Origin: Spirochaetia bacterium
GTDB taxonomy: Bacteria > Spirochaetota > Spirochaetia > WTKD01 > G963693115
Direction: 5' to 3'
Assembly: GCA_965226055.1 (NCBI GenBank)
Contig: CBDDCA010000006.1
Coordinates: forward strand, 288,001-352,000
Length of the DNA stretch: 64,000 nucleotides
Shown: positions 35,527-42,309 of the stretch, piece by piece
Numbering within the stretch: position 1 is the first letter of the stretch
Layout: the number at the start of each line of letters is the position of its first letter
Program-made: the position numbers and the translations under genes
The notes under the pieces: generated by a model
Told to the model about the DNA's origin: nothing
Database searches by the model: none
The model's input: only the letters and a program-made list of their open reading frames with translations

Positions 35527-36116
35527 TGATCATAGGGGTTACAGGAGGATATTGTGCAGGAAAAAATATGCTCTGTGAAACATTAAAAGAGCTTGGCATT
35601 ACAAGTATTGATGTAGATATCGTTGGACATGCTGCCTTACAAGCAAAAAAAGAAACAATAGTATCTCACTTTGGCAATACCATACTCACCAATAATGAAA
35701 ACATAGATAGAAAAAAACTAGGAAGCATAGTATTTTCCCACAAAAAACAATTAGCCACATTAGAATCTATCGTTCACCCTTGGATGCAACAATATATTCA
35801 TACATTCATACAAAATAATAGTAATTCACATATTACTATTAACGCAGCCCTTCTTTTTTATCTTAAGCTAAATATCTATTGCGATACAATAGTAATACTC
35901 AAAACCCCGTTCTTTGTACGCTTTTTTCGTGCATTACAACGAGATTCTCTTGGTGTTACAGCAACATTAAGACGATTTATGAACCAAAAACCGCTTCCTT
36001 CTCATAAAGTACTTAATCATACATCACATTATGCCGAAACTAAAATTGTAAGAAATAATACACAAATACAATCTTTTGTAGAAACCATAGGGAGAACAAT
36101 ACATGGAACAGTTTAG
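35526..36116 (+). CDS. coaE: Dephospho-CoA kinase
   Basis: IGVTGG..AGK, IDRKKLG..VF, LESIVHP; follows polA. Confidence 0.9.
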   Translation: MIIGVTGGYCAGKNMLCETLKELGITSIDVDIVGHAALQAKKETIVSHFGNTILTNNENIDRKKLGSIVFSHKKQLATLESIVHPWMQQYIHTFIQNNSNSHITINAALLFYLKLNIYCDTIVILKTPFFVRFFRALQRDSLGVTATLRRFMNQKPLPSHKVLNHTSHYAETKIVRNNTQIQSFVETIGRTIHGTV

Positions 36117-37356
36117 CAATAATAACAACACTCATCCACATATACAAACACAATCTCATACAAACAATCAACAGTATCATAACAATTATACTCCGTACCC
36201 TGCCTCTTCAAACAGTACGGATAATCACAATACTACCAACTATAATCCACAACAAAATGCACATGATTCCTATCATTATGCTCATACTCCTGTGGACAAT
36301 AGCATTAGCACTGTCCCTTCTGAAATACAACAACAAACATCTCAGATCCATACCCCTCCTATCAACAATATTCATGCCACCATACAACAAGAAAACAATA
36401 CCCCTCACAATCATGAGGAAATATATCCACAGAATGACCAACATACACAGCGTACAAACTATCAATATACAGCCCCCAACGGAAACACTCCCTATACTTC
36501 CCCTCCCTATGCTCCTAATGACAATCCTTCTGATAATTACAATGCGTATTCAAGCAATCAACATACAAAAGGTAAACACGATCAAAATCAAAGCAACAGC
36601 GCAACTCTCCCTCCAAATAGCAGTACATCAAATAATAAAACAGAACAATTTTTGTTATTTGCTCTTATCATAGCCATATCAATTACTGCCATCGTTATTG
36701 GTGTGGGATGGACCTTGTTTTATCCTAAACCTATCGCTGAAAAGACTGATAGCGTTGCTCCTACCACTGATGACGCATTATCAGAAGTGCAAAATACAAC
36801 AACAAATAAGAGTGAAAACCAAGATCTTGTTATTATTTACAGAGCAGATGAACAAAAAGTAAGTGATACATCTAATACACAGGCAACTACAACACAAAGC
36901 ACAAAAACCGAAACAATATCACGCAGTTCGGGTAGCACTCCCGCTTCTACAAAAAAAGTAGTAACAAAAAGCACTCCCGCTACCGCTACTCCTGTATCAG
37001 CAGTGAAAGCACAACCAACAGCACCAGCACAAACGAAAAACACTACAACAACAACTACCACTACAAAAACAACACCTACAGAGGCAGTGTCTGTTCCTTC
37101 TAAAGTACACATTGATACAAAATATTGGATACAAATTTTTTCTACAAACAACCGAGATAAAGCCAACAAAATTCAAGATGATCTAGACACTCAAGGCATA
37201 AAAACTATCATTGTTACAAAAAACATAAATAATAGCACTTTCTACCGTCTGAGAATAGGACCATACTATAACAAAGATGAAGGAAGTAAATTTTTAGAAT
37301 GGATACGCAGAGACAATAAGTATAAAGATGCGTATATTTCAGTAGAAAAAGGCTAA
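36103..37356 (+). CDS. SPOR-domain membrane protein (FtsN-like architecture)
   Basis: Long N/H/Q/T-rich N-terminus, one TM, T-rich linker, C-terminal YWIQ...YRLRIGPY. Confidence 0.88.
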   Translation: MEQFSNNNNTHPHIQTQSHTNNQQYHNNYTPYPASSNSTDNHNTTNYNPQQNAHDSYHYAHTPVDNSISTVPSEIQQQTSQIHTPPINNIHATIQQENNTPHNHEEIYPQNDQHTQRTNYQYTAPNGNTPYTSPPYAPNDNPSDNYNAYSSNQHTKGKHDQNQSNSATLPPNSSTSNNKTEQFLLFALIIAISITAIVIGVGWTLFYPKPIAEKTDSVAPTTDDALSEVQNTTTNKSENQDLVIIYRADEQKVSDTSNTQATTTQSTKTETISRSSGSTPASTKKVVTKSTPATATPVSAVKAQPTAPAQTKNTTTTTTTTKTTPTEAVSVPSKVHIDTKYWIQIFSTNNRDKANKIQDDLDTQGIKTIIVTKNINNSTFYRLRIGPYYNKDEGSKFLEWIRRDNKYKDAYISVEKG

Positions 37357-38772: not shown

Positions 38773-38830
38773 AATGAAATTATATACGAAAGCATAAGAG
38801 TTTGTATTATCATTCATAGTACTATAATTT

Positions 38831-39109
38831 TCATTTACCTTTGAACTCTTCTAGTTTTGTTATCAACTCTTGAAAACTTTCATCGGTTGATATTTTATGT
38901 AAAGGTGAATTTTTACTTTTATCTATCATCTCTTCTAATTTAACTAATCCTAATACCATCAAGTCTATTATTGCCTCACTTGTCTTTGGCAATGAAGTAT
39001 TTAAACGCATTCTTTTTAGAATACGATAATCTTCCATCCTATTAAATAAACTATCTGGCATATTCATTACTATTCTTTGTCCTACTGTATTTTTTTGTGT
39101 TTGTTGCAT
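38831..39109 (-). CDS. Small protein, probable ribbon-helix-helix DNA binder
   Basis: RIVMNMPDSLFNRMEDY...SEAIIDLMVLGL; AGGAG RBS. Confidence 0.6.
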   Translation of the reverse strand: MQQTQKNTVGQRIVMNMPDSLFNRMEDYRILKRMRLNTSLPKTSEAIIDLMVLGLVKLEEMIDKSKNSPLHKISTDESFQELITKLEEFKGK

Positions 39110-39118
39110 TACATTCTC

Positions 39119-39358
39119 CTATCTTCCTAATATCATTAATACATTATCACCATCTTGAATAATTTTTTCTATACTATAGCCTTCAGACGAATGGTAGTTT
39201 AACCAATCAGATAAATTTACTGTGTATACATCAAAATTTTCTTCAAGAACTTCATTTATAGTAAATGTACTATCAGTATCATCTACTCCTTTAGGGTTTT
39301 TATATGTTTCCCATACCTTTGGGTTACTTAATTTTCCCCATATTGTTCTATACTGCAT
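39119..39358 (-). CDS. Small hypothetical protein (DUF4177-like C-terminus)
   Basis: WLNYHSSEGYSIEKI...LMILGR; AAGGAG RBS. Confidence 0.55.
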   Translation of the reverse strand: MQYRTIWGKLSNPKVWETYKNPKGVDDTDSTFTINEVLEENFDVYTVNLSDWLNYHSSEGYSIEKIIQDGDNVLMILGR

Positions 39359-39671
39359 AACATCTCCTTGTAGTTACTTTATTTTTTTTATGATTACTCA
39401 TTGCTTTAGAGCTGACATGGAGAACAAGCTAAGTCTCCCTTAATCCAATTATACAATACAGCATATACATTTGCTATTTATATACAATTAAATACAAATC
39501 AACAGTCACTCTTTTTTTGATAAATGAGAATAATTTTATAGCATAACTAGCCCATAAGATATTCATTATTTTTTGGTTTATATAATTACAGAAAGTATAT
39601 TTTTCATATCTATTTTTTCTTTTGTAACATTTAACTGAATCTATAGCTTGCAGAAACCCTTAATATTGCAA

Positions 39672-40196
39672 TTAACTATTAGAACCACAACAAATTTTAT
39701 ATTTTTTACCACTACCACAAATACATCTATCATTTCTACCAATATTTTTTATAGAATCATAAAATTCTTTGATACCTTCTATTCCATGAGACCATTCCCC
39801 CCAAGGAGGAACTTCATTATATTGTTCATAATATGCTTGCCAAACAAAAAAAGGACAAACAAAACATCTAATAAAATCTGATAATTTTTTTTGTTCTGGC
39901 ATAGATAATTCTAAACAACAACTACCATCATCATATATATGTCTATCGGCTATTTTTTCTATTCTATTCCCTGTTTCATATACTTTCCTATTTGCACAGT
40001 CTATTTTTATCTCATAAACATCTTTAACAAAAGTATTTTGATATCTTTGTTTATTGTTTTGATCTGGGTTATGAATTAATTTTTTACCATCATATACAGC
40101 ACAAACATTAATCTCACCTTTTACAAAATTTCCCTCAAGATATAAGTTAGGAAATTGTTTTTGTATATTTTCAATATCTATCTCCATATAATTCAT
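39672..40196 (-). CDS. Prokaryotic E2-like protein with C-terminal SEC-C motif (CBASS ancillary)
   Basis: HIYDDGSCCL (E2-like H...G..C), PWGEWSHG..GI.E.Y, GRNDRCICGSGKKYKICC. Confidence 0.75.
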   Translation of the reverse strand: MNYMEIDIENIQKQFPNLYLEGNFVKGEINVCAVYDGKKLIHNPDQNNKQRYQNTFVKDVYEIKIDCANRKVYETGNRIEKIADRHIYDDGSCCLELSMPEQKKLSDFIRCFVCPFFVWQAYYEQYNEVPPWGEWSHGIEGIKEFYDSIKNIGRNDRCICGSGKKYKICCGSNS

Positions 40197-40229
40197 GATT
40201 AACTGAAGTATTTACTGTTGTCTAGCTTA

Positions 40230-41153
40230 TCACCATAATATGGTGAAATATGGCTTGGTAGCACCTGATATAAATGGTATATTGTCATCTAATGTACCAA
40301 AATCATCCCCAAAAATTTCTCTCCATTTCTTAACGCTTTCATTATGATCATTGCTATTGTATGCTTCATTTATTTTATCTGTATACAGTTTTATCTTGTC
40401 TCGAAAATTTGAATATTTATCTTCATCCCAATGTCTATTGAAATCTTCATCATCTAATACAGGATTTTTTATAGTAGGCATATGTTCATTGTTTTGTAAA
40501 AAATCATTTAAGTTATTCATTATATGCTTCAAAGCAGTAGGTAAATCTGAAAATGAAACACTATCACTATCTTTAATTTGATTTCCTAAAAGAGTTGTCA
40601 ATAAAATGGACTTACAGCTAAAATTTGTTTTAATATCTCTCATATACTTGACTAATTTAATGACTTTCTTTAAATATCCTCCAGATTTTTCATTTTTTCC
40701 TATTAACCAATTCTTATAAGCAGTTCCATCCGTTATTTCAAATTCATTTTCCTTTTTATTACAAATATACTTTTTTTCTATACAAGGAACAATATCTAAA
40801 TGAAAGTCTCCGCTATAATCAATAGTTACACAGCGAGTTTTTCTTTTTACTATATCCTTATAGTTACCATCATCTTTAAATAGTTTATATATATTCTCTA
40901 TATATTCCTTTGCTTCCCAATCTAAATCTTCAATATAAACCATTATATCAGCATCAAAATCTTTCTCTTTTGGTGGCTTAATAATTGTCTTACTGCCATA
41001 AGAGCCTTGATTTTCTATTGCTTGATAACCCTCTAAATTATTTTCTAAAAACCCTTTAATACAGCCTACTCTCTTTTGAAGTGTCTCTAATCTAGTTTTA
41101 TTTAAATTTACTTTTTCTTCCATAAATTCATTAAAAAATTTTTCATGTTTCAT
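40230..41153 (-). CDS. cGAS/DncV-like nucleotidyltransferase (CD-NTase, SMODS plus AGS-C-like tail)
   Basis: QGSY...TIIKP...DFDAD, RCVTIDY...FHLDIVP, KSILLTTL, NPV..DEDFN.HW, WREIFGDDF. Confidence 0.9.
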   Translation of the reverse strand: MKHEKFFNEFMEEKVNLNKTRLETLQKRVGCIKGFLENNLEGYQAIENQGSYGSKTIIKPPKEKDFDADIMVYIEDLDWEAKEYIENIYKLFKDDGNYKDIVKRKTRCVTIDYSGDFHLDIVPCIEKKYICNKKENEFEITDGTAYKNWLIGKNEKSGGYLKKVIKLVKYMRDIKTNFSCKSILLTTLLGNQIKDSDSVSFSDLPTALKHIMNNLNDFLQNNEHMPTIKNPVLDDEDFNRHWDEDKYSNFRDKIKLYTDKINEAYNSNDHNESVKKWREIFGDDFGTLDDNIPFISGATKPYFTILW

Positions 41154-42079
41154 GATATATTCTCCTTATAGTTTAAGTTTAACATTTTTTTTATTTCATC
41201 TCTATGTTCTAAAAAGCATTTATCAGCAAATACTTTTAAATTATCCAATCCCTCTACTTTATCTATCTGATGATTTATAGAACTATTAACCCTCAAATAA
41301 TTATCTCCTAAAATAAGGCTACTCATATTTGTGGAAGACTGAGTAGATAATTGTAAAATATATTCTATCAAATTTCCTATTTTCCACCCATTTATAAATC
41401 CCCAACATTTTTTATTTTTATCATATTGTAAGTTAGTATCCCCTGTACCTATTGAAAGTATTTTTATATTCTCTATTTTTTTATTAAATTTTTTCTCTGT
41501 CATTGCTTCGGTTAAACCAATAATAGAAGGATTATTTGCCCATAACCCACCATCTGCTAATAAATATTTATTCTTCATTCTAAAAGGATTAAAATAAATT
41601 GGAGCAGAACAAGAAGATAAAACAGCCTCAGCTAATGGAGTAGTTGCATCTCTAACATATTCATCACTTGATGGATAGTTTGATTTATGAATATACACAG
41701 AACCATTCAGTACATCCGAAGCAATAATCATCAAAGGCTTATCTATCTTTCCTAATTCAATATCTCCAAAAGTTTTACTAAGTATTTTACCTAAATGTTT
41801 ATTATTGTACTTACTCCTAAATAAACCGCATCGAAATATTGTTTTATGAAATATTTTCTTTCCTTCTTCTTCATATATCTTTATCACTTCATCTAAGGAA
41901 ATATCTAGAGCAATAGCACTTGCCAATATTGACCCCGTGCTTGTTCCTACAATTAAATCAAAATACTCTTTTAACTTAATATCAAAACATTCTTCTATTT
42001 TTTTCAGAATAACAGCAGAGTATAAACCTCTTATTCCACCACCATCTAAAGACAAAATTTTAAATTTTTCACTCACCAT
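41150..42079 (-). CDS. capV: Patatin-like phospholipase, CBASS effector (CapV-like)
   Basis: DGGGIRG, GTSTG, SCSAP.YF, DGGLWANNP, LSIGTG; ATGA overlap with the CD-NTase. Confidence 0.88.
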   Translation of the reverse strand: MVSEKFKILSLDGGGIRGLYSAVILKKIEECFDIKLKEYFDLIVGTSTGSILASAIALDISLDEVIKIYEEEGKKIFHKTIFRCGLFRSKYNNKHLGKILSKTFGDIELGKIDKPLMIIASDVLNGSVYIHKSNYPSSDEYVRDATTPLAEAVLSSCSAPIYFNPFRMKNKYLLADGGLWANNPSIIGLTEAMTEKKFNKKIENIKILSIGTGDTNLQYDKNKKCWGFINGWKIGNLIEYILQLSTQSSTNMSSLILGDNYLRVNSSINHQIDKVEGLDNLKVFADKCFLEHRDEIKKMLNLNYKENIS

Positions 42080-42309
42080 AAATCCTATTTCTCTTAATTC
42101 TATTACAGCCTTTTTTTTCTGATAAAATTTCCTTTGCTCCTATATACATACTATCACACTTATTGTTTTTTTGTTAATATGTTTTTATTGTTTTTTAACA
42201 AAAGTTATTAATAACATTTATGCTTTGAAATCGTAACTCACACACTCATACTATTTCTGTTTTTGTAGTATACTATTACTATCTACTAACGAAAATAAAG
42301 GAGATTATT

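Follow-up and report, generated by a model that had tools for sequence, protein, structure and literature searches.

An E2-only CBASS operon in a Spirochaetia bacterium, with a SEC-C-bearing E2 and a phenylalanine at the presumed attachment site of its cyclase

The 64,000-nucleotide (nt) stretch of Spirochaetia bacterium DNA analysed here (assembly GCA_965226055.1, contig CBDDCA010000006.1, positions 288,001 to 352,000; hereafter the window) contains three neighbouring genes for a patatin-like phospholipase, a cyclase of the CD-NTase (cGAS/DncV-like nucleotidyltransferase) kind and a stand-alone E2-like protein with a SEC-C zinc motif at its C-terminus. We consider it likely that these genes make up a horizontally acquired, E2-only (type II-short) cyclic-oligonucleotide-based antiphage signalling system (CBASS), an abortive-infection operon whose mechanism would resemble that described in Serratia. 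All three genes are intact and have kept all their catalytic residues. The class, type II (short) or E2-CBASS, is already known from the literature, where 593-616 such systems have been counted; its members combine a cyclase and an effector with a lone E2 and have neither E1 nor JAB proteins. What remains of interest lies in an unstudied, SEC-C-bearing branch of these systems and in a phenylalanine allele of the cyclase.

An earlier sequence-only reading of the window, made without database searches, had proposed a compact CBASS of patatin, CD-NTase and stand-alone E2 fused to a SEC-C motif, and matches in Pfam, PADLOC and NCBIfam bear out this composition. The three open reading frames (ORFs) lie where that reading had placed them, all on the minus strand: the patatin gene at 41150-42079 (309 amino acids, aa), the cyclase gene at 40230-41153 (307 aa) and the E2-SEC-C gene at 39672-40196 (174 aa, with M4 as a possible start in gene callers). 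The patatin and cyclase genes overlap by 4 nt, a gap of 33 nt separates the cyclase and E2 genes, and the AT-richness attributed to the operon corresponds to a GC content of 0.27 for the interval 38785-42240 versus 0.355 in either flank. The catalytic motifs reported as intact, namely GTSTG and DGG in the patatin, GS, DxD and D in the cyclase and the E2-like Cys, are indeed all present. The absence of E1 and JAB genes also held, as no E1-like or JAB-like ORF was found among the island ORFs of at least 40 aa, in a search limited to the island.

The effector gene adjoins the cyclase gene, and family matches point to a CapV-type patatin phospholipase. Its product matched Pfam Patatin (3.5e-26), the PADLOC phospholipase effector (2.8e-86) and NCBIfam NF041079 CBASS_lipase (246 bits versus a cut-off of 200), and the closest solved proteins are CBASS phospholipases activated by cyclic GMP-AMP (cGAMP) (1e-36). 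Its motifs comprise the oxyanion DGGGIRG at residues 12-18, the nucleophile S47 in GTSTG (at 45) and D176 in DGG.

The cyclase matched Pfam SMODS (3e-30) and PADLOC cyclase PDLC00793 (7.1e-122), and residues G50, S51, D67, D69 and D120 of its GS, DxD and HLDIVP motifs are invariant across a 53-sequence alignment. Its AlphaFold2 model has a mean predicted local distance difference test (pLDDT) of 92.7 and a final helix at residues 270-281. Foldseek searches with this model gave the best E-value for CdnC (7.6e-16) and the best superpositions for CdnD, with template-modelling (TM) scores of 0.84-0.85 and root-mean-square deviations (rmsd) of 2.3-2.5 Å. When the cyclase profile was compared with solved enzymes, the nearest was BcCdnD (9sa4; 99 bits), identified as Bacillus cereus CdnD through PMC13424991, with CdnC at 55 bits and the Serratia enzyme SmCdnG at 72 bits, the latter match being confined to the N-terminal half. 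Both by profile and by fold, the cyclase thus resembles CdnD and CdnC more closely than CdnG. According to Xiao et al. (PMC12948482), clade G accounts for 73.65% of E2-CBASS cyclases, and these clade G enzymes are long and recruit the E2 through a C-terminal helix and three-stranded sheet; this E2-recruiting module of CdnG was not seen in the model of the window cyclase.

From sequence matches and predicted structure, the third protein reads as an E2 with a ubiquitin-conjugating (UBC) type fold. PADLOC E2 model PDLC00872 matched residues 7-151 (2.3e-26), and the active-site stretch H86...C93-C94-L95 (39915-39941, minus strand) associates an HPN-like His, H86, with the catalytic Cys in the CCL at 93-95. 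Across a 29-sequence E2 alignment, E74, H86, C94, L95 and H137 never vary, while C93 shows at least 90% conservation. The AlphaFold2 model built from this alignment (mean pLDDT 83.2) was submitted to a wide VIA-align search of 48,161 solved chains, whose 50 top rows are almost all E2, ubiquitin E2 variant (UEV) or RWD domains. The top row is the UEV domain of Tsg101 (Z 7.6), and Cap2 of E. cloacae (7to3_A) reached Z 5.0. The sequence-only reading had named a structure search without a UBC fold as one result that would overturn it; the search instead ranked SmE2, taken from the Serratia CdnG-E2 complex (8hsb_B), second of the 48,161 chains (Z 6.8, rmsd 3.4 Å, 113 residues aligned over model residues 1-137), with 13% identity in the structural alignment.

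If the third gene were an unrelated SEC-C passenger, the operon would be a plain two-gene type I CBASS. This would suit Pfam, which sees only the SEC-C motif in the third protein, and the public annotation of its relatives as 'SEC-C metal-binding domain-containing protein'. We regard it as highly improbable, since PADLOC E2 models match most of the protein at the value given above, the structure search returned almost only UBC-like folds with SmE2 among them, the His and Cys are invariant, and the E2 domain is fused to the cyclase in relatives and follows the cyclase in unrelated genomes.

The E2-CBASS of Serratia marcescens (8HSB/8YJY) provides the closest mechanistic precedent. Yan et al. 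(bioRxiv 10.1101/2022.05.25.493364) describe SmE2 as a Cys/His protease that removes the residues following a conserved cyclase Gly. According to this preprint and PMC12948482, C101 and H87 cleave after cyclase G406, forming a thioester and then an isopeptide with K159 in the C-terminal tail of SmE2 itself, while H152 modulates the reaction. The preprint also reports that H87, C101 and H152 are essential, that SmE2 builds cyclase chains that activate cGAMP synthesis, and that Ala substitutes for the attachment Gly of SmCdnG, Val or Leu do not, and bulky changes abolish linkage. The earlier deduction that the window cyclase tail must be processed matches this chemistry, although the point had already been established by Yan et al. 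and is not a new inference.

The window operon shares with the Serratia system its composition of cyclase, lone E2 and effector without E1 or JAB proteins, a UBC-type E2 with a Cys and two conserved His, and the location of the cyclase tail in the E2 active site, which was seen in Serratia and is predicted here. The His/Cys/His sets, H86, C94 and H137 in the window E2 and H87, C101 and H152 in SmE2, are alike in kind; H86 and H137 are both invariant and within the predicted cyclase interface, and may correspond to H87 and H152 of SmE2. The differences include the effector, here a patatin, and the SEC-C motif of the window E2, as SmE2 is not among the PDB chains matched by this motif. They extend to the cyclase, with SmCdnG being a clade G enzyme of 407 aa with a helix and beta-sheet recruiting module, whereas the window cyclase has 307 aa and only a disordered tail. 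Finally, the attachment residue is Gly in SmCdnG, and the corresponding position is occupied by Phe in the window and by Ala, Ser, Cys or Gly in its relatives.

Binding of the cyclase to the E2 was explored by predicting their complex, together with a zinc ion, from the alignments of the two proteins. The complex scored 0.81, the best of three controls scored 0.00, and in calibration 58 of 80 solved complexes attained this mark, as did 2 of 110 mismatched pairs. At least 87% of contacts were shared between runs, with partner pLDDT values of at least 87. The predicted interface involves residues 1-6, 8, 268-270, 287 and 289-305 on the cyclase side, and on the E2 side includes residues 37-45, 86, 88, 93-97, 110-116, 130, 132-135 and 137-138. 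Its tightest pairs bring residues 291-298 of the cyclase tail against E2 residues 39-44 and 110-115, a pairing that suggests strand addition. No E2 residue beyond 141 was named in the confident interface, and residues left unnamed by the tool are only uncertain. The model supports cyclase-E2 binding without showing it.

The Serratia precedent and the predicted complex suggest how the operon may work. The cyclase tail would add a strand alongside E2 residues 39-44 and enter the active site formed by H86, C93/C94 and H137. Acting as a Cys/His protease-ligase, the E2 would cut the tail after the small residue following a K-P-Y motif and hold the cyclase as a thioester, before transferring it to a lysine, either one of its own or one of another cyclase, a step that may prime or activate nucleotide synthesis upon infection. 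The resulting signal, probably a cyclic di- or trinucleotide, would switch on the phospholipase, leading to destruction of the membrane and death of the infected cell.

The cyclase tail is predicted to be disordered and comprises 26 residues (282-307; 40233-40310, minus strand), the last two 10-residue blocks having pLDDT values of 52-53. Its C-terminus reads ...SGATKPYFTILW, just as the sequence-only reading had noted, and is followed by two stop codons. Tail statistics were drawn from the best 120 of 1884 cyclase homologues, the window's own protein being counted. In this set, a three-residue motif is recurrent near the C-terminus, with K or R at position -3 in 110 sequences, P at -2 in 107 and Y at -1 in 97, followed in 114 of the 120 by a small residue (86 A, 18 S, 6 C, 4 G). 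The remaining six include L (2), R (1), K (1) and the Phe of the window, where the motif takes the form K300-P301-Y302-F303 (40245-40256, minus strand). Most unfused cyclases have either one (49 sequences) or three (41 sequences) residues after the motif. A similar arrangement is found in SmCdnG, where Y405-G406-E407 also associates an aromatic with a small residue, one to few residues from the C-terminus. The K-P-Y tail of type II-short cyclases may already be displayed in the logos of Extended Data Fig. 8 of Ledvina et al. or in the figures or supplements of Millman et al.

This conservation pattern also bears on the proposed cleavage site. The sequence-only reading had suggested cleavage after a Gly, which in this tail would be G297. 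This is unlikely, as G297 occupies an unconserved column of the cyclase family alignment and the conserved element is instead K-P-Y followed by a small residue, here replaced by Phe. The attachment Gly, or tolerated Ala, found near the C-terminus of E2-CBASS cyclases is absent from this position, which holds F303. F303 is the sole Phe at the small-residue position among the best 120 relatives. All six KPYC sequences belong to the seven closest listed relatives of the window cyclase (60-69% identity). The simplest origin for the Phe would be one base change, TGC to TTC, replacing the Cys found in these sequences. The sequence is real rather than an assembly slip: the interval 39600-42200 is identical in contigs from three samples of one study, and a 151-nt contig of a second study is identical over 40157-40307, spanning the cyclase tail; some of these sequencing runs are possibly the assembly's own source.

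In the final cyclase codons (40196-40262, minus strand), two copies of the hexamer CCATAT lie 10 nt apart, and the alternative frame after the second copy reads SPYYGDKLDNSKYFS, with a stop 2 nt before the E2 start codon. This peptide faintly resembles the KPYCDKY tails of the closest relatives and may be the trace of an old frameshift or due to chance. We rated an old frameshift below the Cys-to-Phe point change, since it would place a Tyr, and not a small residue, after K-P-Y.

Owing to Phe, conjugation in this copy may be impaired, lost, shifted or different. The operon could thus be of the E2-CBASS kind with conjugation disabled, its cyclase being either permanently unprimed, which would make it a weakened system, or independent of the E2. 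We hold this to be possible though not the expected state. The uniqueness of the Phe in a set where the closest relatives carry Cys, its persistence in contigs of both studies and the loss of linkage upon bulky replacement of the equivalent Gly in SmCdnG (bioRxiv 10.1101/2022.05.25.493364) all speak for it. Several observations point the other way: the three ORFs are intact with every catalytic residue kept; sequencing runs of two studies carry it without change; the occurrence of L, R and K in relatives indicates that the pocket may tolerate more than that of SmE2; the complex model still threads the tail through the E2 up to residue 305; and the true cut site has never been mapped in this clade. 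The missing small residue leaves membership of the class standing on other features, and the doubt concerns conjugation in this copy.

An E2-only CBASS with a Serratia-like mechanism remains our preferred reading, and a number of observations weigh against it. One is F303 itself, which occupies a site where SmCdnG accepts Gly or Ala and not Val or Leu. The window cyclase has no recruiting module of the CdnG type and by profile and fold stands closer to CdnD and CdnC, so that the Serratia analogy crosses clades. Regarding the E2, every VIA-align Z value is below 8 and thus middling by the tool's own warning; Foldseek comparison of the E2 model with the PDB gave no match at E <= 0.001, the best being the UEV domain of Vps23 at 0.39; and neither the E2 sequence alone nor the 29-sequence profile reached SmE2 in the PDB, where SEC-C peptides were the sole matches. 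The argument for a UBC fold is accordingly carried by the uniformity of the list and the hidden Markov model match, not by Z values. As for the complex, its prediction departed from the calibration in its use of our own alignments and of an accompanying zinc ion, and its score may partly reflect likeness to the solved SmCdnG-SmE2 complex.

The SEC-C zinc-knuckle of the E2 occupies residues 154-171, RNDRCICGSGKKYKICCG (39684-39737, minus strand), with the core CICGSGKKYKICC at residues 158-170. It matched Pfam PF02810 (4.5e-09; 36.4 bits versus a cut-off of 20.4), which predicts a metal knuckle, as well as the C-terminal zinc peptides of SecA and YchJ in the PDB. With the SEC-C of these two proteins (PF02810; 1SX0, 1OZB, 9L6B), it has in common the CxCGSGKKYKxCC consensus, four metal ligands and basic residues; it differs in being attached to a UBC-fold enzyme within a defence operon.

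The SEC-C fusion, to which the sequence-only reading had drawn attention, is not special to this operon. A word-indexed search found the CxC...CC knuckle in 29 of 29 close E2 homologues, among which R154, N155, C158, C160, G161, K165, K167 and C169 do not vary. When 1.84 billion cluster representatives were searched with a profile, 858 clusters (50% identity) were recovered at E <= 1e-10, 65 of them at E <= 1e-30. CxC...C(C/H) was present in 139 of the best 150 E2 representatives, several of the remaining 11 ending before or within the motif. Cyclase-E2-SEC-C fusions of at least 450 aa represent 13 of these 150, all 13 with the motif kept, and fusions of 510-537 aa represent 8 of the best 120 cyclase homologues. 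Sequence comparisons thus show the SEC-C tail to be the usual arrangement in a large, already catalogued E2 subfamily, and not a peculiarity of this locus. In the literature searched, no paper was found discussing SEC-C or zinc on a CBASS E2; the one CBASS/SEC-C paper examined (PMC11381338) concerns another protein, and the word 'zinc' is absent from Xiao et al. (PMC12948482).

Searches of genomic DNA with the E2 were dominated by its SEC-C motif. When genome contigs were searched with the E2 alignment, the generic motif prevailed and a full-length relative was found in only 1 of 80 kept loci (L001). A search of 60 relative genomes produced a match in every genome through the SEC-C of SecA-like frames of about 900 aa; only one of these genomes (G000) has a full-length E2 match, and another (G009) has a partial match at 32% with one stop codon.

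Our best guess for the knuckle is that of a structural or lysine-presenting C-terminal module, which would act like the Lys-bearing tail of SmE2. It could instead be a targeting or sensing device, through binding to SecB, ribosomes or the membrane near the effector, or through redox or metal stress sensing, a role which the sequence-only reading had raised and which we find doubtful. The motif is of the full SecA type and invariant across the subfamily. According to bioRxiv 10.1101/613315, the metal-binding domain of SecA binds SecB and ribosomes and can hold iron, and PMC13377102 reports that Cys149/Cys150 of YchJ, solvent-exposed at the C-terminus beside a lysine run, are a switch responding to reactive oxygen species; both precedents favour such a role. 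The predicted complex, with no E2 residue beyond 141 in the confident cyclase interface, would also leave the knuckle free for another partner, but residues unnamed by the complex tool are merely uncertain, and the knuckle itself has a pLDDT of only 56-72 in the E2 model. A function specific to the membrane is further at odds with the occurrence of the motif, equally kept, with non-membrane effectors such as the HNH-like protein of locus L094.

Comparison with other CBASS loci places the operon in a broader context. A Poribacteria genome (L001) has the same gene order, with a patatin, a cyclase (tail ...PSKFYAR) and a 213-aa E2-SEC-C, while in L094 the cyclase and E2-SEC-C are found with the HNH-like protein; the E2-SEC-C module therefore travels with different effectors. 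Type II CBASS with Cap2/Cap3 offer further points of likeness, including the CapV-type patatin effector of Vibrio cholerae DncV-CapV, the cyclase fold, which is closest to CdnD (TM 0.82-0.85), as in Enterobacter cloacae CdnD-Cap2 (7TO3), and the regulation of the cyclase through its C-terminus, which is inferred here. They differ from the window island, which has neither E1 adenylation domain nor JAB isopeptidase and in which the E2 is a stand-alone protein of 174 aa. Also observed beside the E2-SEC-C genes were separate helix-turn-helix (HTH) and HExxH metallopeptidase proteins in L001 (1187-2434) and an HTH-HExxH metallopeptidase fusion in L094 (2687-3865), which we take to resemble CapH/CapP regulators. 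No such HTH/metallopeptidase pair was found in the island of the window.

The operon was probably acquired horizontally and belongs to an ordinary accessory defence island. This AT-rich island (38785-42240, no strand assigned; 3456 bases) comprises the operon and two small ORFs. The window aligns collinearly with a genome of the same genus (G001) up to position 38784 and again from 42241 (93.9% and 95.9% identity), and between these borders G001 has 1366 different bases in place of the 3456 of the window. The cyclase was detected in 3 of 401 genomes of the same class (E <= 1e-20), the window's own genome being counted, and in none of 5 other genomes of the same family at this threshold. The slot appears to be a variable site.

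In G001, this slot (L100, 10708-12073), located between OMP and ilvC genes, contains two ORFs of 222 and 101 aa that look, by eye, like a zinc-ribbon/DDE insertion sequence (IS) transposase split by a frameshift. Just within each border of the window island is one arm of a 26-nt imperfect inverted repeat (38789-38814 and 42201-42226; 73% complementary), which may be due to chance in AT-rich DNA. The two small ORFs of the island lie downstream of the E2 gene on the minus strand and encode 79 aa (39119-39358) and 92 aa (38831-39109). Neither product matched Pfam, PADLOC or NCBIfam, and a homologue search with the 79-aa product returned only itself; the 92-aa product showed weak likeness to repressors of the ribbon-helix-helix or MetJ-like kind, with E 0.0056 for a PHROG transcriptional repressor and an Atlas feature score of 0.91. 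Scanning for promoters and terminators was uninformative, with 32 promoter-like sites versus 25.9 +/- 4.6 expected and no terminator-like site. Elsewhere in the window (36103-37356, plus strand), a gene encodes a 417-aa protein whose long N-terminal half is of low complexity and rich in N/Q/T/H; a single membrane span is predicted, and the C-terminal part is SPOR-like by eye.

Studies of E2-only CBASS, a minimal, one-enzyme version of the ubiquitin cascade, have been confined to the CdnG branch of Serratia. The SEC-C branch is large, with its 858 clusters, and combines another type of cyclase, a linear K-P-Y tail and an invariant knuckle. We tentatively raise the idea, as something of a long shot, that SEC-C E2s and their short, K-P-Y-tailed cyclases constitute a mechanistically distinct branch of E2-CBASS, in which the tail alone would be recognized by strand addition, any small residue, instead of Gly, would be accepted after the aromatic, and the knuckle, holding zinc or iron, would provide acceptor lysines or a tie to SecB, ribosomes or a redox or metal cue. 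If so, the window would carry, in its Phe, a natural variant in which conjugation of the cyclase is altered or blocked. Biochemistry on any member of this branch would tell whether the protease-ligase mechanism also applies there and what role the knuckle has, and the Phe variant could serve as a ready-made test allele.

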